Below are positions 6,533 to 45,439 of a stretch of DNA of 64,000 nucleotides, piece by piece. The DNA is taken from assembly GCA_045635585.1 (NCBI GenBank), contig JAZTWA010000005.1:13101-77100 (forward strand). Reading direction: 5' to 3'. The stretch is from Candidatus Enterousia sp. GTDB taxonomy: Bacteria; Pseudomonadota; Alphaproteobacteria; Rs-D84. Below the pieces are notes generated by a model. The model saw only the letters and a program-made list of their open reading frames with translations, made no database searches and had not been told where the DNA came from. A program made the translations under genes and the position numbers. Each line of letters opens with the position of its first letter. Positions within the stretch are counted from its first letter, which is position 1.

Positions 6533-7717
6533 CTAGTGAAAAACGTAACTGTCAATACCGTTTGATGTAGCGGCAGATTTTATTTGCTGGGCCGCGGTTT
6601 CAGTTAACCCATATGCACGAACACGATACAATCCATTTCCCGTTGGTTCAACAGTCGCAACCACACCCAATTTTGATTTTATATTTGCAGCGTGTCTGTT
6701 GGCGGCATCAATTGAACCAAAGGCCCCAAACTGAACCCCCGCATTGCCAGATGACGTTTTTGGTGTGGTATTGTATGTGGGCGCCACATTCTGTTGTGCA
6801 ACCGCCCCCGTTGCCGCGTTATACGCCGCAGAAAATGTTGTTGGCGCGTTATCATTCACAACGGGTGCAGAACCCGCCCCCACAACCGGCGGCACAGGTG
6901 TATTCTTTACCACAGGTGCAGAACCCGAGTTTAACATTTCAAAACCACGATTTAACATTTGAACAGAAACATTTGCGCGCACATCTTTGGATTCGGCACC
7001 CAAAACAACCGACATCAAACGTTTATCCCCACGGTGCGCTGTTGCAACCAATGAATATTTTGATTTTTTTGTATATCCTGTTTTCATACCATCACAGCCA
7101 TTATATGACGTCAGCAATCGATTCCCATTTGTATATGTTTTTCCATCATAGACCCATGATTTAATCCCAAAAAAGTGCCAATATTGTGGAAAATGTTTAT
7201 AAACCGCCATGGATAACAATGCAATATCACGTGCAGTTGACATATGGTCATCATTTGGCAGACCAGACGAATTTTCAAAATTTGTATTCGTTAAACCAAT
7301 TTCACGCGCAACACGTGTCATCAAATCGGCAAAAGTTTCTTCTTGGCCCCCTTTTAGGTTTTCAGCCAACACGCGTGCAACGTCATTTGCACTGTACACC
7401 GCCAATGCCTTTATTGCATCTTCGACGCGAATTTTTGAACCCGCTGCCAATCCCAACTTTACCGGTTCGGCATTGGCCGCCGCGCGCGAAACAATCAAAT
7501 AATCATTTAATGTTAAACGCCCATGTTCCAACGCATCAAACGTCAGATATAGTGTCATTATTTTTGTTAAACTGGCCGGATAATTGGGTTCATTTGCGTT
7601 TTCTTGGTACAGGACACGCCCCGTTTCCATATCCGCGACCAATGCCGCACGATATTGTGCCGCGAATAGATTTGAAGATATTAATATTGTAAATAAAAAT
7701 GAAAAAATCCGTCCCAT
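6533..7717 (-). CDS. D-alanyl-D-alanine carboxypeptidase (S11) with C-terminal SPOR domain
   Basis: PASLTK (SxxK), SAN (SxN) and KTG motifs, a P/A-rich linker, and an SPOR-like VQFGAF...YRVR tail. Start refined to ATG 7717. Confidence 0.92.
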   Translation of the reverse strand: MGRIFSFLFTILISSNLFAAQYRAALVADMETGRVLYQENANEPNYPASLTKIMTLYLTFDALEHGRLTLNDYLIVSRAAANAEPVKLGLAAGSKIRVEDAIKALAVYSANDVARVLAENLKGGQEETFADLMTRVAREIGLTNTNFENSSGLPNDDHMSTARDIALLSMAVYKHFPQYWHFFGIKSWVYDGKTYTNGNRLLTSYNGCDGMKTGYTKKSKYSLVATAHRGDKRLMSVVLGAESKDVRANVSVQMLNRGFEMLNSGSAPVVKNTPVPPVVGAGSAPVVNDNAPTTFSAAYNAATGAVAQQNVAPTYNTTPKTSSGNAGVQFGAFGSIDAANRHAANIKSKLGVVATVEPTGNGLYRVRAYGLTETAAQQIKSAATSNGIDSYVFH

Positions 7718-7724
7718 ATGTGAA

Positions 7725-7754
7725 ATGATAATAAAAAAACACACATCTGGTCAA
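7725..7754 (-). promoter_or_regulatory. Putative sigma70 promoter (leaderless transcript)
   Basis: TTGACC-18-TATCAT, then 7 nt to ATG 7717. No Shine-Dalgarno sequence. Confidence 0.55.
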
Positions 7755-7768
7755 TAGTTAATAAAAAT

Positions 7769-7797
7769 AAAAAATCCCCCGTTTGGGGGATTTTTTT
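7769..7797. terminator. Intrinsic terminator, ATCCCC family
   Basis: aaaaaatccccc-gttt-gggggattttttt at the end of the 1061-aa gene. Confidence 0.85.
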
Positions 7798-10700
7798 AAT
7801 CCAATGTAATCGTGAAGACTCCGCCATATGTTCCGACGGGTTCGCCACCAACATAACATTCGATTTTGGAACCGACGTTATCCATAAATTCTTGGATGGC
7901 TTCTTGTTCGGCTTTATCCAATTCGGCGTCTTGAACAGCCTTGGTTATACCGTAACCCAATCCAGCACCGGCACCAGCACTGATAACACCGCCCAACAGT
8001 TTACCACCGTTTTTATCCCACCATTCGCCAGCCTGTGACTTTTCTTTTTCAATAGACTGGGCATTTTCATACATTTCTGTGGTCAAATCATCACATTGTG
8101 TTTTCATATCTTCAATTTGCTCAAAGAATGCGCTTGCAGTATTAGTATTAGTATTAGTATTATAGTTTGCACGTGCCGAATCATATGCGGATGTTGTTAC
8201 GACATCGAATTTTTCAAATATCTTTAACACACGATTTTCGTATTTTTGGTATCCGGCTTCTTTCGGCGTTGCGCTACTTTTAAATAAATTCGCAAAAGCA
8301 TCAACCATTTTATTACACTGATTTTTTTGTGCCTTTAATTCCGTATTTGACATAACGGCGGTGTTTTTCTTTTGATTCAAGCCACCCAATACGCCATCAC
8401 CTTTATTCTTGGAACCATTTTGGATATAATCACCCAAGAATACGCCACCGGTCCCCAGACCCAATGCACCAACCGCGGCCATCCAACCAGCAATCTTTGG
8501 CTGTGATGCTTCTTTGGTGTCGCGTGCGTCTTGACCCGCCTTTTCTGACAATTCTTTTAATTTATCAGATGGAATCCATGAACCACATACGAATGCGTCA
8601 CCAACCGCAAAGTATGTTGTCGCCCAATCTGCACCCGCATTGATTGCATCTTGGATATATTTATCATCGGAATGCAACGTTACACGTGCACGACAGAAGG
8701 AACCATACAAATCGTTACTGGCCACCATTTGATTTGCTTTTAATCCGTTTCCAGTATATCCATTTGGAACCTTGTTCGATTTCAATTTTACCCACATATA
8801 TGTTGAACCATTATCTTTGGCCCCCATGATGCCGCCATTGTTCATGGCAAAGCAACGATTTTGTTCTTGGGTTAATTTTGCATTATATTTCGCCTGGGCT
8901 TCGATTTCCAAATCGTAAATCAGGTCGCGGAACAATGTGCTGGCCGCCTGGGTTTCGGCATATGTCGTATATGAAATCATAACAGGTTTATCATATACTG
9001 CACCATTTGCATCAACATTGAAACATACCCCTTGGTCGCCAGACGCATTTGAACACAGCTGATTACCATATTCATCTGTTGCCTGAACTTCTTCGGTTGT
9101 GGCGGTCATCTTGGACGCACCACCCGCATCAATCCATCCACCACGTACCGTTGTGGAATTACCCCAACTGGACGCACCGACACTCTTGTCTTGGATTTTC
9201 ATTTTATTTGTTTCGATTGCCAAGTGTTCTTCACAAACAGATGCGTTTTTAACCGTATCAACACACAATCCCAATACGATTGTATAATCCAAAACACCAC
9301 CAACCTTGTTCATTGATTTATCAAACGATGCATCACCACTGTTGGTTAATGTTGAATACATATCTGTACGATTGCGATAGCAATTTACATAATCTGTACC
9401 ACACAATGACTTAACACAAGATGTCGCAACAGATTGACATTGTTTCTTCATCTGGGCAATTGCGGCATCACTATAATTTGTTGCCAATGATGCATTTAAT
9501 GATGCAATTACACCAATTGGGTCCGCTTCTGCGCCAGAATCATATTCTGGGAACAATGTATCAAATGCATCACCCATATTAAATGAATATGTGTATGTAC
9601 CCGTTGCATTTGGATTTTGGGCCGCATATTTACAATTCGCGTCGGTATTTACAATAGATGCACAACCCGTTCTGATTTCTTCACGTGTGTATTCGTTGTT
9701 AATTGTTTTGTCGCCATTACCAAAAACCTGGGAATAACATGCCGCACCAGAACCAGAACCACAAACACGCATTGCACATGACGATAATGTTTGCGCACAT
9801 TTTTCTTTGGCACGCGTATCAAACTTTTCAACCAATTCGGTTACACGCGCCTTCATGCCAGAATTGTAACGCGCACTGTATGCCGCATCAAAGATTTCTT
9901 CTTGGTTATCTTCGTCACGCAACTGGGACGCGGTTGGCATCATGCCATCGCCCAAGAATGTTGCATAACAATATTTGTTTGAACCAATTGTATCCAAACA
10001 TGAATTCTTGATATAGGCAGATATATTTGATTTATCGACCGTCGTCATCGTTTCCGCCAATTCTGTGACTGATGTACCGTTATTAATAGCATCAACCAAA
10101 CTGATTGTGCCAGCAGTTGCATTTTCATAACATTTGTATGGATTGGCCGTACATGCACCCAAGAAACATTGGTCAACAACCTTGTAACATGTGGATACCG
10201 CGTTTACCGCCGCCAATGCGCCACCTTCGGCAATTAATTCACCAACACGACTGGACGCGGTTGGATTTGCCGTCAAAGATGATGAACCCAACAATTCTGT
10301 TACACCTTCGCCCTGACAACGCGCCAAGGTAGAATCACAATAAACGCGCTGTTTCTTGAATTCAGCATTCGTTGTACATAATTCAAATTCAGAACCACAA
10401 ACACTGTCTTTTTTCAAGCATGATGTATAACGTTTTACACATGTCGATGTATCGTATTTGTTCGAAATCGCCGCCGCAGTAATCAATTGTTCCAGAACAC
10501 TGCCAGTCGCAGGATATTTATAACTGGCCACTTCGCCATAAGAATTTGTTGTCGCAACATCAGACAACGCCGCAACGTTAGATGTACCAAACAAACTTTT
10601 TATACCATCAGATGAACACTGGGCCAATGTGGACAAACATTGTGGCATTTTTGCGTGAAACAAGATACCAGTTGTACATTCTTCGAAATTTGGCCCACAG

Positions 10701-10981
10701 ATGTCCGCACCCTTGATACATTCGGAATATGCATCAATACAGTCAGTATTATTCAACAAAGACGATGTAGATGTCGTTGCCGCCGCAGCCACAGATGCAG
10801 TTGCAGTTCCGCCCTTGGCCCCAGTGACGTATGACGTCATAGTTGGCATACGACGAACCGCACCATTTGCAGACATCGCGGTCGCAGTGTTCATAACACT
10901 GGGGCGCGCAGTAACCGCATAGGCCGCAGGTATCACACTGAACAAAGCAATAAAACTTACCGTATTTTTGAGAAAAGACAT
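7796..10981 (-). CDS. Large exported cysteine-repeat protein (1061 aa), function unknown
   Basis: Signal peptide (...IPAAYA), 38 Cys by my count including five 6-Cys modules, and two Gly-rich hydrophobic segments near the C-terminus. SD GGAG upstream. Confidence 0.85.
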   Translation of the reverse strand: MSFLKNTVSFIALFSVIPAAYAVTARPSVMNTATAMSANGAVRRMPTMTSYVTGAKGGTATASVAAAATTSTSSLLNNTDCIDAYSECIKGADICGPNFEECTTGILFHAKMPQCLSTLAQCSSDGIKSLFGTSNVAALSDVATTNSYGEVASYKYPATGSVLEQLITAAAISNKYDTSTCVKRYTSCLKKDSVCGSEFELCTTNAEFKKQRVYCDSTLARCQGEGVTELLGSSSLTANPTASSRVGELIAEGGALAAVNAVSTCYKVVDQCFLGACTANPYKCYENATAGTISLVDAINNGTSVTELAETMTTVDKSNISAYIKNSCLDTIGSNKYCYATFLGDGMMPTASQLRDEDNQEEIFDAAYSARYNSGMKARVTELVEKFDTRAKEKCAQTLSSCAMRVCGSGSGAACYSQVFGNGDKTINNEYTREEIRTGCASIVNTDANCKYAAQNPNATGTYTYSFNMGDAFDTLFPEYDSGAEADPIGVIASLNASLATNYSDAAIAQMKKQCQSVATSCVKSLCGTDYVNCYRNRTDMYSTLTNSGDASFDKSMNKVGGVLDYTIVLGLCVDTVKNASVCEEHLAIETNKMKIQDKSVGASSWGNSTTVRGGWIDAGGASKMTATTEEVQATDEYGNQLCSNASGDQGVCFNVDANGAVYDKPVMISYTTYAETQAASTLFRDLIYDLEIEAQAKYNAKLTQEQNRCFAMNNGGIMGAKDNGSTYMWVKLKSNKVPNGYTGNGLKANQMVASNDLYGSFCRARVTLHSDDKYIQDAINAGADWATTYFAVGDAFVCGSWIPSDKLKELSEKAGQDARDTKEASQPKIAGWMAAVGALGLGTGGVFLGDYIQNGSKNKGDGVLGGLNQKKNTAVMSNTELKAQKNQCNKMVDAFANLFKSSATPKEAGYQKYENRVLKIFEKFDVVTTSAYDSARANYNTNTNTNTASAFFEQIEDMKTQCDDLTTEMYENAQSIEKEKSQAGEWWDKNGGKLLGGVISAGAGAGLGYGITKAVQDAELDKAEQEAIQEFMDNVGSKIECYVGGEPVGTYGGVFTITLD
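8139..8162. repeat. In-frame hexanucleotide tandem repeat (GTATTA)x4 encoding (NT)n
   Basis: Seen directly; translates as ...YNTNTNTNTAS... Confidence 0.9.
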
Positions 10982-17479: not shown

Positions 17480-19045
17480 ATGAATAACAACTATACTGTT
17501 TTGGCACGCAAATATCGCAGTCAGGATTTCAAAACACTTATTGGCCAAGATGTTCTGGTAAAAACATTGACCACCGCAATTAATACATCACGTATTGCAC
17601 ATGCATATATTTTCACCGGTATTCGTGGAACAGGAAAAACCAGTACGGCACGTATATTGGCCAAGGCATTAAACTGTCAGTCATGTGAAAACGCAACACC
17701 AAATCCATGTGGGGTTTGCGAAAACTGTCGTGCAATTGCAGCCGGTCAACATATTGACGTTATGGAAATTGACGCGGCGTCACATACAGGCGTGGACAAC
17801 ATGCGTGATATTATGGATGCGGCACAATATCGCCCAACAAATGGTCGATACAAGGTTTATATAATTGACGAAGTTCATATGCTATCTACTTCGGCATTTA
17901 ATGCGTTGTTAAAAACACTGGAAGAACCGCCTGCACATGTTATATTTATTTTGGCAACAACAGAAATTCGCAAGGTTCCTGTTACTATTTTATCACGATG
18001 CCAAAGATTTGATTTGGTTCGTGTGCCGGTTGACACACTAAAAAAACATTTCGCATGGATTGCAGAACAGGAAAACATTCAATTATCCGATGAAGCAAAT
18101 GAATTATTGGCACGTGCGGCCGATGGTTCTGTGCGCGACGGACTATCATTACTAGACCAAGCCATCGCGCAAACCGGCGGAAACGTTACTGCGGATGCGG
18201 TTTTGGATATGTTAAAACGTGCGGACCGCGGCGTGGTTGTTGACTTTATGAAAACATTATTATCCGGCGATACCGCCGCAGCATTGGACAAAGTTGATAC
18301 AATTTATAACAACGGTGCCGATCTTGCGATGTTGTTGACCGATATGATGGAATGGACACACTGGGCCACCAGAATGCACCCTGCACTGCGTGCAGGCGAA
18401 ACACAAAATTCACCATATACCGCCGACCAACGCGATCAAATACACGACATTAATTCGCGTATATCTGTAAACACTTTATCACGCATATGGCAGGTTATGG
18501 TTGCCGCTGTTCCTGAAATGCAGGCCGCAGGGAATCAAAAACAATGCTTTGATATGCTGGTCATTCGTATGATGCACATCGCAGATATGCCATCTGTTCC
18601 CGAAATATTAAAACAACAAGAATCCGAAAATCGGGTACGTGATGTAAAAAACATCTTGGCCGACAGAATGGCAAAGTCAACTGATGAAAAAACAGAATCA
18701 AAACCACAATTCAAAAATATCACAAGTGCATCAGAATTGGCAGAAACACTGCAAGAAACCAAAGAAATACTGTTGTATTCATATTATAGCAACAATATAG
18801 AAATCACAGAATTTTCGGACGGAAATATAAAATACTTTGACCGCAAAGGAGATGCCGATTTTGCACATAAATTATCGAAATGGTTAATGGACAAAACGGG
18901 TCATGCATGGACACTGGTACGCGAAACCCAATCAGCAAACACACAAACAATATCTGAACAAAAACAAGAAGAATTAGAGGCAGACCCATTGGTTGCCAGT
19001 GCAATGAGTTTATTTGAAAATGCAGAAATCGTAGGAGTAAAATAA
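17480..19045 (+). CDS. dnaX: DNA polymerase III subunit gamma/tau
   Basis: LARKYR, Walker A GIRGTGKT, C4 zinc motif, IIDEVHMLS, LKTLEEPP and SRCQRF. Confidence 0.97.
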   Translation: MNNNYTVLARKYRSQDFKTLIGQDVLVKTLTTAINTSRIAHAYIFTGIRGTGKTSTARILAKALNCQSCENATPNPCGVCENCRAIAAGQHIDVMEIDAASHTGVDNMRDIMDAAQYRPTNGRYKVYIIDEVHMLSTSAFNALLKTLEEPPAHVIFILATTEIRKVPVTILSRCQRFDLVRVPVDTLKKHFAWIAEQENIQLSDEANELLARAADGSVRDGLSLLDQAIAQTGGNVTADAVLDMLKRADRGVVVDFMKTLLSGDTAAALDKVDTIYNNGADLAMLLTDMMEWTHWATRMHPALRAGETQNSPYTADQRDQIHDINSRISVNTLSRIWQVMVAAVPEMQAAGNQKQCFDMLVIRMMHIADMPSVPEILKQQESENRVRDVKNILADRMAKSTDEKTESKPQFKNITSASELAETLQETKEILLYSYYSNNIEITEFSDGNIKYFDRKGDADFAHKLSKWLMDKTGHAWTLVRETQSANTQTISEQKQEELEADPLVASAMSLFENAEIVGVK

Positions 19046-19503
19046 TGAAAATGGAATCTGGACGTTCTTTGATTGAAGTTATTGGCGTAATGGCAATTGC
19101 AGGATTAATGACGATATCCGCATTAGGTGCGTATAAAATGATACGCGCAAATCAGACACGAAATATCGCAGACGCCGAATTAAAACAAATTGTACAGAAT
19201 GTAAAAATACTGATGGAAATGCGCGGTTCGTACGAAGGGGTCAGCGTTGATTATTTAATCAAGGCAGGCGCTTTACAATCCAATCGCGCGCCAATTGGTG
19301 GTGAAAACTGGTCTATTTATGCAAGCGCGGATGGCAAATCTTTTTCAATTAATTTAATTGATTTAACAAACGGCGAATGTGAATACTTTGCAAACAAAAA
19401 GCACAATTGGGCATCCGCAATGTTAATCAACGGATTTGAATCAGGGTTAACCAACAACTGTTTCGATTCTGATACAAATCAGATTTCTTTTATTGTTGAA
19501 TAA
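19045..19503 (+). CDS. Type IV pilin (PilS-like) / pseudopilin, 152 aa
   Basis: MKMESG|RSLIEVIGVMAIAGL prepilin motif with E5, and a C-terminal Cys pair. TAATG overlap with dnaX. Confidence 0.8.
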   Translation: MKMESGRSLIEVIGVMAIAGLMTISALGAYKMIRANQTRNIADAELKQIVQNVKILMEMRGSYEGVSVDYLIKAGALQSNRAPIGGENWSIYASADGKSFSINLIDLTNGECEYFANKKHNWASAMLINGFESGLTNNCFDSDTNQISFIVE

Positions 19504-31274: not shown

Positions 31275-31301
31275 AAAAATCCCCCATTTGGGGGATTGTT
31301 T
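31275..31301 (-). terminator. Intrinsic terminator, ATCCCC family
   Basis: aatccccc-attt-gggggatt. Confidence 0.75.
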
Positions 31302-31303
31302 AA

Positions 31304-33511
31304 TTATTTTTTCGTACCGCCTTTTTGTGCACTGTCTTTTGTCCATGAACGGATGTTATAATTATCAGCACCGTCATCTGATTGGCCCCAATTTCCTTTG
31401 GACGCGCTCATATCTATTCCCATGGCTTGGCGCAGACAGTATTCACGCAACTGTGCAGAATCTTTGGTTATATTATCACCATATTCTGGGGTAAAATTCT
31501 CCAAACTTTCTACATATGCACCGTTCAAGATTTCATTTAACGTTACAACGTTACGGCATGTATTTGTTGTATAATCTCGGCTGTTTGTGCAAGAAGCAGC
31601 GTCCGCTTTGTCGATAACCGCATTAAACCCGGCACCAAATGGGATACAAATCATTTCTTCGTAACAGTGTGGAATATTTGAAATCTGGGCACAATATGTT
31701 TTTATGCGCGCAGTTGGCCAATCTTCATCTTCCTGATCTTCATAGCAATCCAGAATTTCTGTTAAACATTCATTAAGGTTTGTTCCCGCCGTCTGGGCCG
31801 CATTCAATATTGATTCTGCTTCGGCCTGGGCAAAATCAAGACGCTTTTGCTGTAATGCCTGTTGTGCCGCAACCTTTTGATAACCGATGTTTTGTGCGGT
31901 TGCACGCAACTGTTCACCATACGCATCACAGTCCGCATTCGCATCCAATGCATATTTCTGCATAATGCTGCGACGTGCATCGGCAACCGGTGTACGCAAA
32001 TTAGAATATGGGTCACCAGATGTTGAATTATAACCAAAGCATGCCGCAGAATTTGATGCCGAATAACTGCTGTTTGCTTTGACAAAATCTAATTCATACG
32101 AACCGGTATTATTTACAGTTATATGACTGTTGTAATTAAATGGACATTGGGACGCACCATTGCTGCACTTGGTGCCAGATGGTGGGGTTCCGCATGCCTC
32201 ATAAATACCGTTAAAGCATGAATCCAAAACACGTGCACAAACATTGTTATGCGCATATTCAAACAATTCATAGCCCCACGTTTCCGCCAATGAATCTTTG
32301 GTTTCTTCCGCACTGTTCAATGCGCCACCGATACCAGACATTCCGTTAACAACACTGGACAAGTTATCAAAGGCAGATGACAAACTGTTGTTATCGTCGG
32401 TCAGGATTGTAATCGTGCTTTCTTTTGCCTTGGCCCATGATTGTAAAGACGCCAAAATATCCGAACCATTACCATCTATATCATCAATATCAAACCCGAA
32501 ATCATTGCCACCTTTATCATCTGTACAATATTTTGGCTTAGTACAGGATGTAACCTCACCGCTGCCATCTTCTTTATAAATACCATGATTCGAACACCAT
32601 TCAATTGCTTCTTCTGAAGACGTCCCATATTCATTAGTCACATCTTGCCATGAAACACAATTCAAGACCTTTTCGGCGTCGGTTAATTTGAACGCTTCGG
32701 ATATATCTTTACCATTGCTGGCCACCAATAATGCCAATTCACCAGAAACCTTAATCAATTCTTCGTTGGCGGTTTCTAATGCGGCCTGCGCCTCTGCAAA
32801 GGCGCGAACACGACCCGCACATGCACAACGACGTTGGGCCGCATTACGTGCCGTACAAATTTCGTCCATACATGTATAATATGATTCCATACAATTACTG
32901 AACGCTTCTGATGAAATCAGGCCAGTTGTTGAATCAATAATATTTGAATAATTACCTGTGTACAGTTTGCTGGTCAAATATGAATATGTTGATGATGTTG
33001 TTCCCGACGCCTTGGCACCGCGTATCGCACTGCCCTGTAATGAAATGCGCGCGTTATTTGCCGCATCAGTTGTTGCAGTACGCGCACGCACCGTACGTCT
33101 TTGATTTGCCTGGGCGCGATTTGTTGCCGCCGTCTGACGCGATACAACATTACGCTTTGTCGTGGCATTGGCACGTGATGTCGCCGCACCCGTTGCACGA
33201 TTTGTTGCCGCACGCGAAACAACCGTACGTGATGCCGCACCAGTTATTGCCCCCCTATCCGCAACAGCAGTACGCGCAACCGCACGACGTGATGTTGTGG
33301 CGGTGTTACGTGGACTAACCCGGCCAGATGTGCGCGCATTTGCACGACCAGATTGTGGCCCAACAATCATATTTGAATCCATCGGCGCAATTGGGTCCGC
33401 GAATACAGAACGTATCGACAAAAATGTCGAACATACAAAAAATGCCCCCGCCAGCAAAAACACCGTACCCATGGCATTTTTCAAGGAATCTGTTATTTTT
33501 TTATCAGCCAT
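31304..33511 (-). CDS. Exported cysteine-rich protein (735 aa) with R/A/T-rich N-terminal arm
   Basis: Signal/anchor helix, about 100 aa of low-complexity basic sequence, and 24 Cys by my count including C-x6-C-x4-C. SD AGGAG. Confidence 0.85.
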   Translation of the reverse strand: MADKKITDSLKNAMGTVFLLAGAFFVCSTFLSIRSVFADPIAPMDSNMIVGPQSGRANARTSGRVSPRNTATTSRRAVARTAVADRGAITGAASRTVVSRAATNRATGAATSRANATTKRNVVSRQTAATNRAQANQRRTVRARTATTDAANNARISLQGSAIRGAKASGTTSSTYSYLTSKLYTGNYSNIIDSTTGLISSEAFSNCMESYYTCMDEICTARNAAQRRCACAGRVRAFAEAQAALETANEELIKVSGELALLVASNGKDISEAFKLTDAEKVLNCVSWQDVTNEYGTSSEEAIEWCSNHGIYKEDGSGEVTSCTKPKYCTDDKGGNDFGFDIDDIDGNGSDILASLQSWAKAKESTITILTDDNNSLSSAFDNLSSVVNGMSGIGGALNSAEETKDSLAETWGYELFEYAHNNVCARVLDSCFNGIYEACGTPPSGTKCSNGASQCPFNYNSHITVNNTGSYELDFVKANSSYSASNSAACFGYNSTSGDPYSNLRTPVADARRSIMQKYALDANADCDAYGEQLRATAQNIGYQKVAAQQALQQKRLDFAQAEAESILNAAQTAGTNLNECLTEILDCYEDQEDEDWPTARIKTYCAQISNIPHCYEEMICIPFGAGFNAVIDKADAASCTNSRDYTTNTCRNVVTLNEILNGAYVESLENFTPEYGDNITKDSAQLREYCLRQAMGIDMSASKGNWGQSDDGADNYNIRSWTKDSAQKGGTKK

Positions 33512-33671
33512 AAAATTTCTCCTTGTGTTCTGGATTTTCCCAGAATCCCAACCTTTCTATGATTTTACACCATGCATGACGCATGTTATTTATGTTTTAT
33601 TATAACAATTTTTTTCAATTCTGTAAACAATTTAGTAACAAAAAACAAATCGATTTGGGAATTGTTTCATA

Positions 33672-33707: not shown

Positions 33708-34265
33708 ATGAAATTTCTTGCCATATTTTTGCCGATAATTTTATTACCAGTCTTCGCACATTCAACACAAAATCCAATGTTTGCATATGGCACACAAAAC
33801 AGCATTATGATAAGCGTCGCACAAAGTACCGGCCAGGGCAATCTGGGCAAACTGGTTGCACCATGGGAATGGGACATGACACCTGCAACCATAACAATGA
33901 TACAATACAGCCAACCAATAACAATTCTGCGATTACCCGCACGTATAAATATATCTGGGGGACAAAATTTTGCATACCACAGCATGGACGGCACATCTTT
34001 TGGCGCAATCGGTGTTTCATGGGATATATTATTGGCCGCACGCGCAGGGTTTTATTTTGGTATCGGCATCGGACCATATATGCGCGACAGTGGCGACAAA
34101 TACGTCAAAAGCCGATTGGTTTTTGGCGAAAAACTTTTTATCGGGAAAAATATTACAAACAAAATTCGTGCAGAATTTTTTACACTGCATTTTTCAAACG
34201 GCGATTTTACAAATCCAAATCATGGCTTTAACTTTACGGGTCTTGGGATAAATTATAGTTTTTAA
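33708..34265 (+). CDS. pagL: Acyloxyacyl hydrolase / lipid A 3-O-deacylase (PagL family)
   Basis: Signal peptide, small beta-barrel, catalytic LHFSNG...PNHGFN, C-terminal ...INYSF. Confidence 0.8.
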   Translation: MKFLAIFLPIILLPVFAHSTQNPMFAYGTQNSIMISVAQSTGQGNLGKLVAPWEWDMTPATITMIQYSQPITILRLPARINISGGQNFAYHSMDGTSFGAIGVSWDILLAARAGFYFGIGIGPYMRDSGDKYVKSRLVFGEKLFIGKNITNKIRAEFFTLHFSNGDFTNPNHGFNFTGLGINYSF

Positions 34266-34266
34266 T

Positions 34267-34299
34267 AAAAATCCCCCAAAAACGGGGGATTTTTATTTT
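34267..34299. terminator. Bidirectional terminator, ATCCCC family
   Basis: aaaaatccccc-aaaaac-gggggattttt between convergent pagL and ppdK. Confidence 0.85.
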
Positions 34300-43186: not shown

Positions 43187-45439
43187 ATGGCAACTAAATT
43201 CAACATTTTATCAGCATCTGGCAAAGGAAAAGGTTTAAATATCTTTCGGTCCAGTTCATATAAAGAACACGAACAGACACCACTGGCGCGTGAATTTTGG
43301 TCAATACGTTGGGCAATATTTATATGGCTATTGGCGGCATTTATGTTTGCAATGGCTTTTCCAATTGAACACATATGGCGATATGGCTGGTCACCTGCAA
43401 CGAAACACTGGATAATTATTTATCTACAAAACTTTTTTATGTCGGGTGGCTTGTCCGCATTGGCAGAAATTCCATCGTGGATTGCGCGTTGCGTTATGCG
43501 ACCAGATATTCCATGCATAACACCACTGCTTCCGATAATCGGTTATTACCTGTTGGCTGATTCAACAATGACTGATGAATTTAACCCACACAGCAAGGAT
43601 AAATTTGATCCAAAAACATCGCGCGTCGCGACAATCAGTGATATCAAAAAAATGTCCCAAGACCATAAAAACAAAGAAGGATTGTTAAATGGCTTTATGA
43701 TGGTGTTGGGTTTTGTCAAAGACAAAGGCAAACCAAAACCATTAAAAATGGACGAATGTATGTCTGCACTGTTACTGGCACCCGCAGGTACCGGTAAAAC
43801 CAATGGTGTCGTTATACCAACAATTTTGGGGTGCGATACTGTTTCCATGATTATCAATGACCCAAAGCCTGAATTGCGTTATTCAACATCGGGATATCGT
43901 GCAACTGTTGGCCCCGTCTTTATATTAAACTGGGGTGCACGCGACGAACCAGAAAACGGGATTTATTATCCGGCATGGAATCCATTGTCCCCAGAAAATA
44001 TGCCTGATAATGCAGAAGAAAAAAGTACATATATTCAGGTTATTGTTAATACCGTTATTGAAGAAAACGCCAAGGATCCACACTGGTCTAATACGGCACG
44101 TGCGGCACTGACCGGATTTATAAACTTTATCGTATCCAAGGTTGAACGTGCCAAAGCAAATGACTATTTTTATTCAAGATTAATGAAGGGTACCTTTGAT
44201 TCCCAAGACGCAACCGTATTGATGGATTATTATATGACAATGTCATCCGACCCAAATGCATATGCAGCAATGTCATTGTTACAACAAGGCAAATTAACCA
44301 AAGAAAATTATGTTCATGTCGGGACGTGGGCGGGATTGCCACCCGAATGGCATGGGACCGAAGCATCAATCCCAATGTTCTTGGCATGGTATGTCGAAGG
44401 TCAATTAAAAATCGGTCAAGAACTGGAAGAACGCAAGCGTCAGGGCGACCAGATGGTTATGATGGCCGATCCAATGAAAGACTTTTTAACCGAAGCTGTT
44501 AATGAAGCGCAACTGTACGCATATGATAGTGATGCAATATCTTCGTTAATCAATTTGGCAAATACACCGGACAAGGAACGCGGGTCTGTTATTTCAACGA
44601 TGAATGCGGGATTAAATATTTTCCGACACCCAGCTGTAAACAAACATACACGACATTCTGATTTACATTTTACCGATGTACGCGGTATGGTTGACCCAAC
44701 AGACGGTCAGGTTAAGCCTGTTACAATTTATTTATCTATGAATGTTGCAGATGCGCCTGCATTTAAACCAATTACCAGCATGTTTATCGAACTGTTATCG
44801 AACTTTTTGATTGCAAATAAACCAGAGCACATAAATCATGGTAAAAAAATGGGGCCATTCCCTGCCCTGTTTGTATTGGACGAAATGCCAACCATGAATA
44901 AACTGGATGCAATTATCCAAGGTCCGGCCGTTGGACGTGGACAAATGGTATCATATCTGATTGTCGGTCAGGATATCAGCCAAATCGCCGATAAATATGG
45001 CGACAAAGCAACAGAAACAATTGTTGCAAATACGGCGGCAAAAATCATCTTGCGCGTTAATGACCCTGATACCGCCGCACGCTTTTCCAGCATGATGGGC
45101 AAGAAAAAAGTTAAAAAGAAAGAACGCGCAGTCGATGGCAAAGAATACGATGTCGATAAAGAAGAAGACTTGTTCAGCCCAATGGATTTGATGACACTGG
45201 CCAAAGGAAAACAGTTGGTATTGTTCCAAGGATTTTATAATCGACCAATCGAAGCAGATGGCGAATGGTATTTCCTGCGTCAATCACCGGTGCAAATCGA
45301 AATGGCGGCCAAGGTTGATTTGGGTGAAACAACACCAATCCCAGAATACATGATTCCAAAACACCATCGTGCATTACGATATGCGGGAAATCCACGTGTA
45401 TATAACCCCAAAACAAAAGAAGTAAAAGAACTAGTATAA
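43187..45439 (+). CDS. virD4: Type IV secretion coupling protein, VirD4/TraG family
   Basis: N-terminal TM helices, Walker A APAGTGKT, NDPKPEL, WNPL, Walker B FVLDEMP, and QDISQI..KYG. Confidence 0.9.
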   Translation: MATKFNILSASGKGKGLNIFRSSSYKEHEQTPLAREFWSIRWAIFIWLLAAFMFAMAFPIEHIWRYGWSPATKHWIIIYLQNFFMSGGLSALAEIPSWIARCVMRPDIPCITPLLPIIGYYLLADSTMTDEFNPHSKDKFDPKTSRVATISDIKKMSQDHKNKEGLLNGFMMVLGFVKDKGKPKPLKMDECMSALLLAPAGTGKTNGVVIPTILGCDTVSMIINDPKPELRYSTSGYRATVGPVFILNWGARDEPENGIYYPAWNPLSPENMPDNAEEKSTYIQVIVNTVIEENAKDPHWSNTARAALTGFINFIVSKVERAKANDYFYSRLMKGTFDSQDATVLMDYYMTMSSDPNAYAAMSLLQQGKLTKENYVHVGTWAGLPPEWHGTEASIPMFLAWYVEGQLKIGQELEERKRQGDQMVMMADPMKDFLTEAVNEAQLYAYDSDAISSLINLANTPDKERGSVISTMNAGLNIFRHPAVNKHTRHSDLHFTDVRGMVDPTDGQVKPVTIYLSMNVADAPAFKPITSMFIELLSNFLIANKPEHINHGKKMGPFPALFVLDEMPTMNKLDAIIQGPAVGRGQMVSYLIVGQDISQIADKYGDKATETIVANTAAKIILRVNDPDTAARFSSMMGKKKVKKKERAVDGKEYDVDKEEDLFSPMDLMTLAKGKQLVLFQGFYNRPIEADGEWYFLRQSPVQIEMAAKVDLGETTPIPEYMIPKHHRALRYAGNPRVYNPKTKEVKELV

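Follow-up and report, generated by a model that had tools for sequence, protein, structure and literature searches.

A predicted exported, cysteine-rich helical protein of Candidatus Enterousia represents an uncharacterised family confined to one family of the order Rs-D84

We analysed a 64,000-nucleotide (nt) stretch of the genome of Candidatus Enterousia sp. (assembly GCA_045635585.1, contig JAZTWA010000005.1, positions 13,101 to 77,100, hereafter referred to as the window), which contains a gene at 31304-33511 on the minus strand for a Cys-rich protein of 735 amino acids (aa), termed P0001. The original prediction, which had been made from the nucleotide sequence, described P0001 as a member of a dispersed, expanded, and lineage-specific family of exported proteins and assigned to the same family the 1061-aa product of the gene at 7796-10981 (minus strand), termed P0002. 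The coding sequence of P0001 (31304..33511, stop codon included) specifies 25 Cys residues, and the open reading frame (ORF) is a genuine gene, with full-length orthologues that share 64-93% identity and reach down to about 31-34%. P0001 and its relatives form an uncharacterised protein family. The description of P0001 as a single gene among housekeeping genes was confirmed, with the addition of envelope genes, by Pfam, which identified the genes in this region, in order, as MutS, RlmN, LptD, LptF/G, P0001, PagL (on the opposite strand), PPDK, PTA, and PNPase.

The gene is equipped with its own expression signals. A promoter-like site TTTACA-N17-TATAAT with a TG extended -10 motif (33599..33627, minus strand; 11/12 matches) was the top site of the scanned stretch and would be followed by a leader of ~90 nt. 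A Shine-Dalgarno sequence AAGGAG (33519..33524, minus strand), read from the sequence, lies 7 nt 5′ of the ATG, and an intrinsic terminator formed by the C5/G5 hairpin AATCCCCCaaatGGGGGATT (ATCCCCCaaatGGGGGAT plus a T-run; 31278..31297, minus strand) is located immediately 3′ of the stop codon. The P0002 gene has a terminator of the same kind and a GGAG site, so that the earlier statement that both genes possess their own Shine-Dalgarno sequence and terminator was correct. Hairpins of the C5-loop-G5 type occur three times in the window (7774-7791, 31279-31296, and 34271-34290) and 16 times in the genome. The genes preceding them, as judged by eye, encode GroEL, GAPDH, SecB, DnaN, RNase E, PPDK, three autotransporter-like proteins, P0001, and P0002. 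The C5/G5 hairpin can be dismissed as a mark of the P0001 family, as it is found at only 2 of 10 family genes and in 16 copies genome-wide; it is a general strong terminator. As an observation in its own right, terminators of this type may mark stand-alone, strongly expressed genes.

P0001 begins with a predicted Sec-type signal peptide (aa 1-38; 33398..33511, minus strand). The orthologue alignments suggest that it is likely cleaved after Ala, the putative site following VFA and giving a conserved mature N terminus of the sequence DP[IV]. As judged from sequence, signal peptides are present at the start of all P0001 orthologues and paralogues. In the Enterousia orthologues they are long, conserved, and hydrophobic and in the distant orthologues short and classic, and in all orthologues they end in A-[DE]-P; A38, D39, and P40 of P0001 are invariant within the genus. 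The signal peptide is followed by a basic tail rich in Arg, Thr, Ser, and Ala (aa 39-190; 32942..33397, minus strand), which is predicted to be disordered, with predicted local distance difference test (pLDDT) values below 50. This tail contains 14% Arg and 19% Ala and has a net charge of +21 (calculated over aa 31-192), and single Arg positions are conserved in the orthologue alignments. The DNA coding for it shows a local G+C content of 53-56%, and a search of it for tandem repeats gave none.

The remaining part of the protein (aa 191-735; 31307..32941, minus strand) is an acidic, Cys-rich, and mainly helical body with 24 Cys residues, a net charge of -38, and an isoelectric point of 4.4 (both calculated from aa 192). 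The count of 24 Cys in the original prediction holds true for mature P0001, as the additional residue, C27, lies within the signal peptide. The Cys-containing motifs quoted there were all found, i.e., CMESYYTCMDEIC...RRCAC (aa 207-231), CARVLDSCFNGIYEAC (aa 425-440), and CLTEILDC (aa 582-589), and the stretches described as coiled-coil-like correspond to long predicted helices, for example that at residues 503-593. Thirteen of the Cys residues are invariant across orthologues down to ~31% identity. Others vanish in pairs among the orthologues (449 together with 456 and 641 together with 652), as expected for disulfide partners, and we infer that up to 12 disulfides may brace the body.

Three segments of the body stand out. 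The first one, termed module 1 (aa 207-231; 32819..32893, minus strand), has the sequence pattern C-x6-C-M-D-x-I-C-x9-C-x-C, is predicted to lie on one long helix, and represents the signature of the family, as recognised by a match to a hidden Markov model (HMM); its five Cys residues are all invariant in the orthologues. The second one is a Cys cluster at aa 425-456 (CARVLDSCFNGIYEACGTPPSGTKCSNGASQC; 32144..32239, minus strand), which occupies the position of module 2 of the paralogues (see below) and is not a canonical module 2. The third one is a very long predicted helix at aa 503-593 (31733..32005, minus strand), the best-modelled and a highly conserved part of the protein, whose region contains the conserved block DPY..LR.PVADARRSIMQKY.LDANADCD.YGE...QKVAAQQALQQKRLEF. 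An AlphaFold2 (AF2) model of residues 186-735, calculated with added divergent orthologues, was mainly helical, with a pLDDT of 73.5 and a predicted template modelling score of 0.53, and the long helix (H321-408 of the modelled fragment) reached pLDDT values of 83-93.

An iterated HMM search of the ORFs of this genome, seeded with P0001, converged on nine proteins, each of which contains exactly one copy of module 1 in the form C-x6-C-M-D-x-[FIY]-C-x9-C-x-C. When the module-1 HMM was built from external paralogues only, it matched P0001 with 63.6 bits (E 1e-18), the top score of 500 shuffled sequences being 7.1. The family-wide signature can be written as C-x6-C-[ML]-D-x-[FIY]-C-x9-C-x-C with a long helix behind it. 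In six of the nine family members, including P0001, a basic tail precedes module 1 and an acidic body follows it. Most of the paralogues in addition contain a module 2, C-x13-C-G-x-[DNE]-[FYLW]-x2-C, located ~220-235 aa beyond module 1. A canonical module 2 was not found in P0001, where only a variant (C425...C449) is present at +218 and the module-2 HMM scored 0.1 bits. This holds true also for the listed full-length representatives of the P0001 orthologues (≥600 aa), none of which has module 2, whereas most paralogue representatives have it. The lack of a canonical module 2 in P0001 and its orthologues argues that they constitute a divergent subfamily of the module-1 family, which appears as a single-copy orthologue group. 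The proposal of a dispersed, expanded, and lineage-specific exported family was thus borne out, with nine ORFs containing module 1 genome-wide and an occurrence in one GTDB family only.

Two loci outside the window relate to this family. On contig C27 (positions 1-21000), at least eight genes encoding exported Cys-rich proteins are densely clustered, three of them with module 1; the first of these genes is cut by the contig end. At C12:77867-79156, a 429-aa exported protein without a Pfam match is encoded that ends in ...IFQF like an outer-membrane barrel and carries an N-terminal extension rich in Arg, Thr, and Lys. This extension resembles the tails of the Cys-rich family, and such tails may serve for binding within the periplasm, provided that the N terminus of the protein is located there.

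P0002 (7796..10981, minus strand; 1061 aa, 38 Cys) served as the comparator. It resembles P0001 in its signal peptide, the many Cys residues in C-x6-C spacing, the acidic body, and the terminator type, and has a similar range (119/121 genomes of the same GTDB family versus 121/121 for P0001). Unlike P0001, it has neither module 1 nor a long Arg-rich tail, for which a 35-aa linker with a net charge of +3 is found, and it contains Gly-rich hydrophobic segments near the C terminus and two canonical copies of module 2. A direct comparison of P0001 and P0002 by BLASTP gave a best E value of 0.38, and hhalign with profiles of 40 orthologue sequences each gave a probability of 0.8%; the sole local match comprised 31 columns at the Cys cluster of aa 425-456 (E 0.067). 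The module-1 HMM scored -16 bits on P0002 and the module-2 HMM 0.1 bits on P0001. Direct homology of the two proteins was therefore not detectable by BLASTP, by profile-profile comparison, and by the module HMMs with their shuffle controls, and the links between them are only transitive.

These links run through three bridge paralogues (C4:16135-19041, C27:18182-20794, and C27:15980-18181), in which both modules are present. The module-2 HMM matched P0002 with 36.3 bits, compared to 9.5 bits for the best shuffled sequence, and the match runs on into a flanking NKYD motif. The bridge profile aligned with P0002 over 280 columns (probability 85%, E 6e-6) and with P0001 at module 1 (probability 73%, E 3e-5). 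As both proteins share modules with the same bridges, they belong to one mosaic superfamily, a network of Cys-rich proteins in which P0001 and P0002 have no demonstrable domain in common. The original prediction, which had counted both as members of one expanded secreted family, was therefore right with respect to P0001 and its exported paralogues, whereas P0002 is connected only via the three bridges. The HMM-HMM comparison it had proposed showed no significant profile similarity between the two proteins. The C-x6-C-x4-C spacing, which it had used as the motif of a shared family, occurs in 17 ORFs of the genome and by itself is no evidence of homology; in P0001 it is part of the longer module that is absent from P0002.

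Some further features of P0002 and the bridges were noted. All three bridge paralogues end with a long hydrophobic segment rich in Gly and Ala and a short Cys-containing tail finishing in C-[ER]-D-I-[QN]-[MF], and in view of similar Gly-rich segments close to the C terminus of P0002, a membrane anchor or sorting signal may be shared. When the PDB was searched with a profile, the helical residues ~890-1070 of P0002 showed a weak, non-significant resemblance to subunits of the pore-forming toxins XaxA/YaxA (E 0.02-0.3). Directly downstream of P0002, a D-Ala-D-Ala carboxypeptidase (Peptidase_S11) with a C-terminal SPOR domain is encoded (window 6533-7744, minus strand).

The source genome has a size of 0.93 Mb in 28 contigs and is 92% complete. 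According to the published description, members of the order Rs-D84 lineage have genomes under 1 Mb with genes for rod shape and peptidoglycan, lack the tricarboxylic acid cycle and respiration, encode many hypothetical membrane proteins, and are believed to live in dependence on other organisms (PMC12306168). With the P0001 orthologue profile, a full-length match was obtained for each of the 121 genomes sampled from one GTDB family, which comprises ten genera including Candidatus Enterousia, and for none of the 29 genomes from the five other families of Rs-D84. When 1.84 billion representative proteins were scanned exhaustively with HMMER, just 160 related clusters were obtained, consisting of orthologues down to ~34% identity and of paralogues that match residues 50-285 only. 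The named relatives are metagenome-assembled genomes (MAGs) designated 'Candidatus Enterousia', 'Alphaproteobacteria bacterium', or 'Rickettsiales bacterium', which originate from the gut of goat, sheep, yak, deer, buffalo, chicken, and human hosts; among the matches listed, the more distant relatives were 'Rickettsiales bacterium' MAGs. Within the genus, the median identity was 64% for P0001, compared to 60% for PagL, 68% for PTA, and 91% for PPDK. P0001 thus changes at the rate of an ordinary envelope protein and is neither a hypervariable, fast-changing antigen nor unusually constrained.

The most often kept neighbour of P0001 is the gene for a PagL-family lipid A deacylase (33708..34265, plus strand; PF09411, E 1e-10), which is oriented divergently from P0001. 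By our own count it adjoins the P0001 orthologue in 47 of 80 Enterousia loci, and it was seen in genus g7, too. In ~25 of the 80 Enterousia loci and in 6 of 10 loci of other genera, a paralogue with both modules is located directly downstream on the same strand, separated in the other genera by -1 to 67 nt. The recurrence of this tandem paralogue in relatives suggests that the single-gene state found here is derived, and the tandem two-module paralogue, a homologue of the protein encoded at C16:73447-75954 of this genome, rather than P0002 is most likely the physical partner of P0001. P0002 never lay within 6 kb of a P0001 orthologue in the 90 loci examined, and the earlier idea that P0001 and P0002 are possibly subunits of one surface structure received no positive support. 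An operon of P0001 with LptF/G and LptD was rejected because of the intervening terminator; this adjacency was found in only 5 of the 80 Enterousia loci and in none of the ten loci of other genera.

In two other genera the pair is associated with genes that surround a PilV-like operon. In genus g3 (G036, L013, C2:141457-155274), the orthologue and its tandem paralogue are located directly downstream of rluD and the PilV-like operon, i.e., at the place occupied by P0002 in the window. In genus g5 (L014/L018), the pair adjoins dnaX, a PilS-like gene, an OmpA-like gene, and the gene for Skp, all of which border the PilV-like operon in the window. This arrangement suggests that an ancestral cluster of Cys-rich genes near the pilin operon may have been broken up in Enterousia. 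The PilS-like gene of the window (19045-19503, plus strand) lies between dnaX and the OmpA-like gene, divergent from the PilV-like operon, and encodes a 152-aa protein with a weak match to the N terminus of PilS-type pilins (E 0.006, below the cut-off). A VirD4 gene is present in the window (43187-45439), and the genome further contains a DsbA-family gene, a secretin gene, and two genes for YkuD L,D-transpeptidases. In the order, PilV-like genes were found in 147/151, VirD4 in 150/151, and DsbA in 149/151 genomes. As these genes occur order-wide and the Cys-rich genes in one family, their co-occurrence cannot support a link; the phyletic comparison with pilV-like and virD4 genes suggested previously thus gave no support, with pilus and type IV secretion genes occurring also without the Cys-rich proteins.

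On balance, we favour the view that P0001 is an exported structural or attachment protein of the cell envelope or surface that is specific to one Rs-D84 family, and consider this somewhat probable. The protein would be carried through the inner membrane by Sec, followed by removal of the signal peptide, and its 24 Cys residues would be oxidised by the periplasmic DsbA system to form up to 12 disulfides. These would staple the acidic, mostly α-helical body including the ~90-residue helix, while the disordered basic tail of ~150 residues at the N terminus would hold the body in place by binding to an anionic polymer of the envelope, such as lipopolysaccharide (LPS), peptidoglycan, or phospholipid head groups. 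As P0001 appears to be co-transcribed with a second family member in many relatives, it may act as a hetero-oligomer with such a protein. The presence of envelope genes as frequent neighbours (PagL, and here also LptF/G and LptD) is in agreement with an envelope role.

Several observations weigh against this view. No matches to P0001 were found in Pfam (E up to 1), NCBIfam, and PHROGs, and a fold search of the PDB with both AF2 models gave no match either, the best hit having an E value of 2.7 and a TM score of ~0.1 and the hits listed being generic long-helix proteins. With neither a homologue of known function nor a fold match, the role has to be read from the architecture alone. The AF2 model of full-length P0001 was poor (pLDDT 55). 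An outer-membrane anchor, a lipobox, or a β-barrel could not be recognised in P0001, and the periplasm, the outer membrane, and the cell surface are all candidate compartments. Finally, the gene neighbourhood of the orthologues is poorly kept, so that gene context says little.

Alternatively, P0001 might be an accessory, cargo, or tip component of the PilV-like type IV pilus/secretin machinery, folded in the periplasm, then exported or displayed by this machinery, and perhaps acting with P0002. The proteins exported by secretin systems have completed folding and disulfide formation beforehand, and a secretin gene is at hand. The location of the gene pair next to rluD and the PilV-like operon in genus g3 and next to the operon-flanking genes in genus g5 would fit such a function, as would the position of P0002, whose gene in many genomes keeps a distance of ~3 kb to the PilV-like one. 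We nevertheless regard this explanation as unlikely. The PilV-like genes are distributed over all six families of the order and P0001 is limited to one, and therefore the pilus system does not need P0001; within Enterousia the P0001 gene is not found beside pilus genes (14 kb from the nearest one in the window), and the protein has no pilin-like N terminus.

P0001 could also be a helical effector or toxin that is secreted and directed against neighbouring microbes or host cells, for example by inserting into their membranes; its body has long helical hairpins, and colicin Ia was among the top, though non-significant, fold hits. The weak similarity of the C-terminal part of P0002 to XaxA/YaxA (E 0.02) and the probable dependence of the organism on partner cells (PMC12306168) can be cited in favour of this idea, too. 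However, none of the structural and sequence matches comes close to significance (fold E above 2; no PDB sequence hit for P0001), and a long hydrophobic hairpin is not visible in the P0001 sequence. A single-copy gene that is present in every sampled genome of the family, changes at the rate of an ordinary envelope protein, and has no adjacent immunity-like gene kept across loci is hardly what would be expected of a toxin, and we consider this explanation very improbable. To a periplasmic scaffold that is covalently bound to peptidoglycan via its mature N terminus by L,D-transpeptidases, in the manner of alphaproteobacterial outer-membrane proteins, and takes over the tethering of the outer membrane to the wall in a genome that may lack Lpp, we assign a comparably small chance. 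It could account for the A-D-P motif at the border of the signal peptide, the only conserved point of an otherwise freely drifting N-terminal region, and for the retention of two YkuD L,D-transpeptidase genes in a 0.93-Mb genome, and outer-membrane proteins of Brucella and Agrobacterium are linked to peptidoglycan through an N-terminal Ala-Asp motif (PMC10787603). Yet canonical cleavage at VFA/DP would leave Asp-Pro and not Ala-Asp at the N terminus, the motif is not kept in the paralogues, and P0001 is predicted to be helical and not an outer-membrane β-barrel.

The family members, at least nine in number, with P0001 and its tandem partner as the core, might together form a disulfide-cross-linked helical layer or fibre of the envelope, tied to peptidoglycan or LPS by the Arg-rich tails or the conserved N terminus. 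We put this forward tentatively, as a rather doubtful possibility. Such a layer or fibre would be a new bacterial envelope scaffold with a role like that of the chlamydial Cys-rich outer-membrane complex and with unrelated sequence and fold. The gut of ruminants, birds, and humans commonly harbours Candidatus Enterousia and related bacteria, which are uncultured and have genomes below 1 Mb. At least nine large genes of so small a genome are spent on one family of apparently exported, disulfide-stapled helical proteins. This suggests an envelope or attachment structure particular to the lineage, which may be central to the dependence on other cells. New in this study are the definitions of the modules, the link of P0001 and P0002 through bridges only, the usual tandem partner, the cross-genus synteny, and the negative phyletic tests. 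With the first three of these results, the family becomes accessible to structural studies and to cryo-tomography of enrichment samples.

The P0001 family is undescribed in the libraries and literature searched; PDB sequence searches with P0001 gave no match and Pfam searches with the bridge paralogues nothing significant. Three known groups of Cys-rich proteins were considered as relatives of P0001 and rejected. TraN of F-like plasmids (PF06986) resembles P0001 as an exported protein with ~22-24 conserved Cys residues, and the genome contains type IV secretion genes. However, neither P0001 nor P0002 matches its Pfam family (no P0001 hit at E up to 1), no TraN chain was found in the sequence and fold searches of the PDB, and VirD4 occurs order-wide and P0001 in one family. 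The Hcp proteins of Helicobacter and other proteins with Sel1-like repeats (PF08238) are periplasmic or secreted α-helical proteins in which helix pairs are stapled by regularly spaced disulfides, a general build that P0001 is predicted to share, the likeness being limited to a presumed role. P0001 gave no Pfam hit to these repeats at E up to 1, shows no repeat periodicity, has a different Cys spacing, is much larger, and carries a basic tail.

A chlamydial type of protein was also detected elsewhere in the genome, namely, a 1046-aa autotransporter-like protein with Chlam_PMP repeats of Chlamydia (PF02415, E 3.5e-22; C11:7556-10696, outside the window), which is unexpected in an alphaproteobacterium. 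In the case of the chlamydial protein OmcB (Chlam_OMP6/DUF11 repeats), a relationship to P0001 was rejected, as there was no Pfam hit at E up to 1 and the predicted fold of P0001 is helical. OmcB has no Arg-rich tail, and its likeness to P0001 is an analogy of role only. In addition to the lack of a sequence relation, the organisms differ in that Enterousia possesses genes for peptidoglycan and rod shape (PMC12306168). What OmcB and OmcA have in common with P0001 is that they are exported, Cys-rich products of core genes in host-associated bacteria with small genomes, and that all of them are thought to stiffen or build the cell envelope via disulfides.

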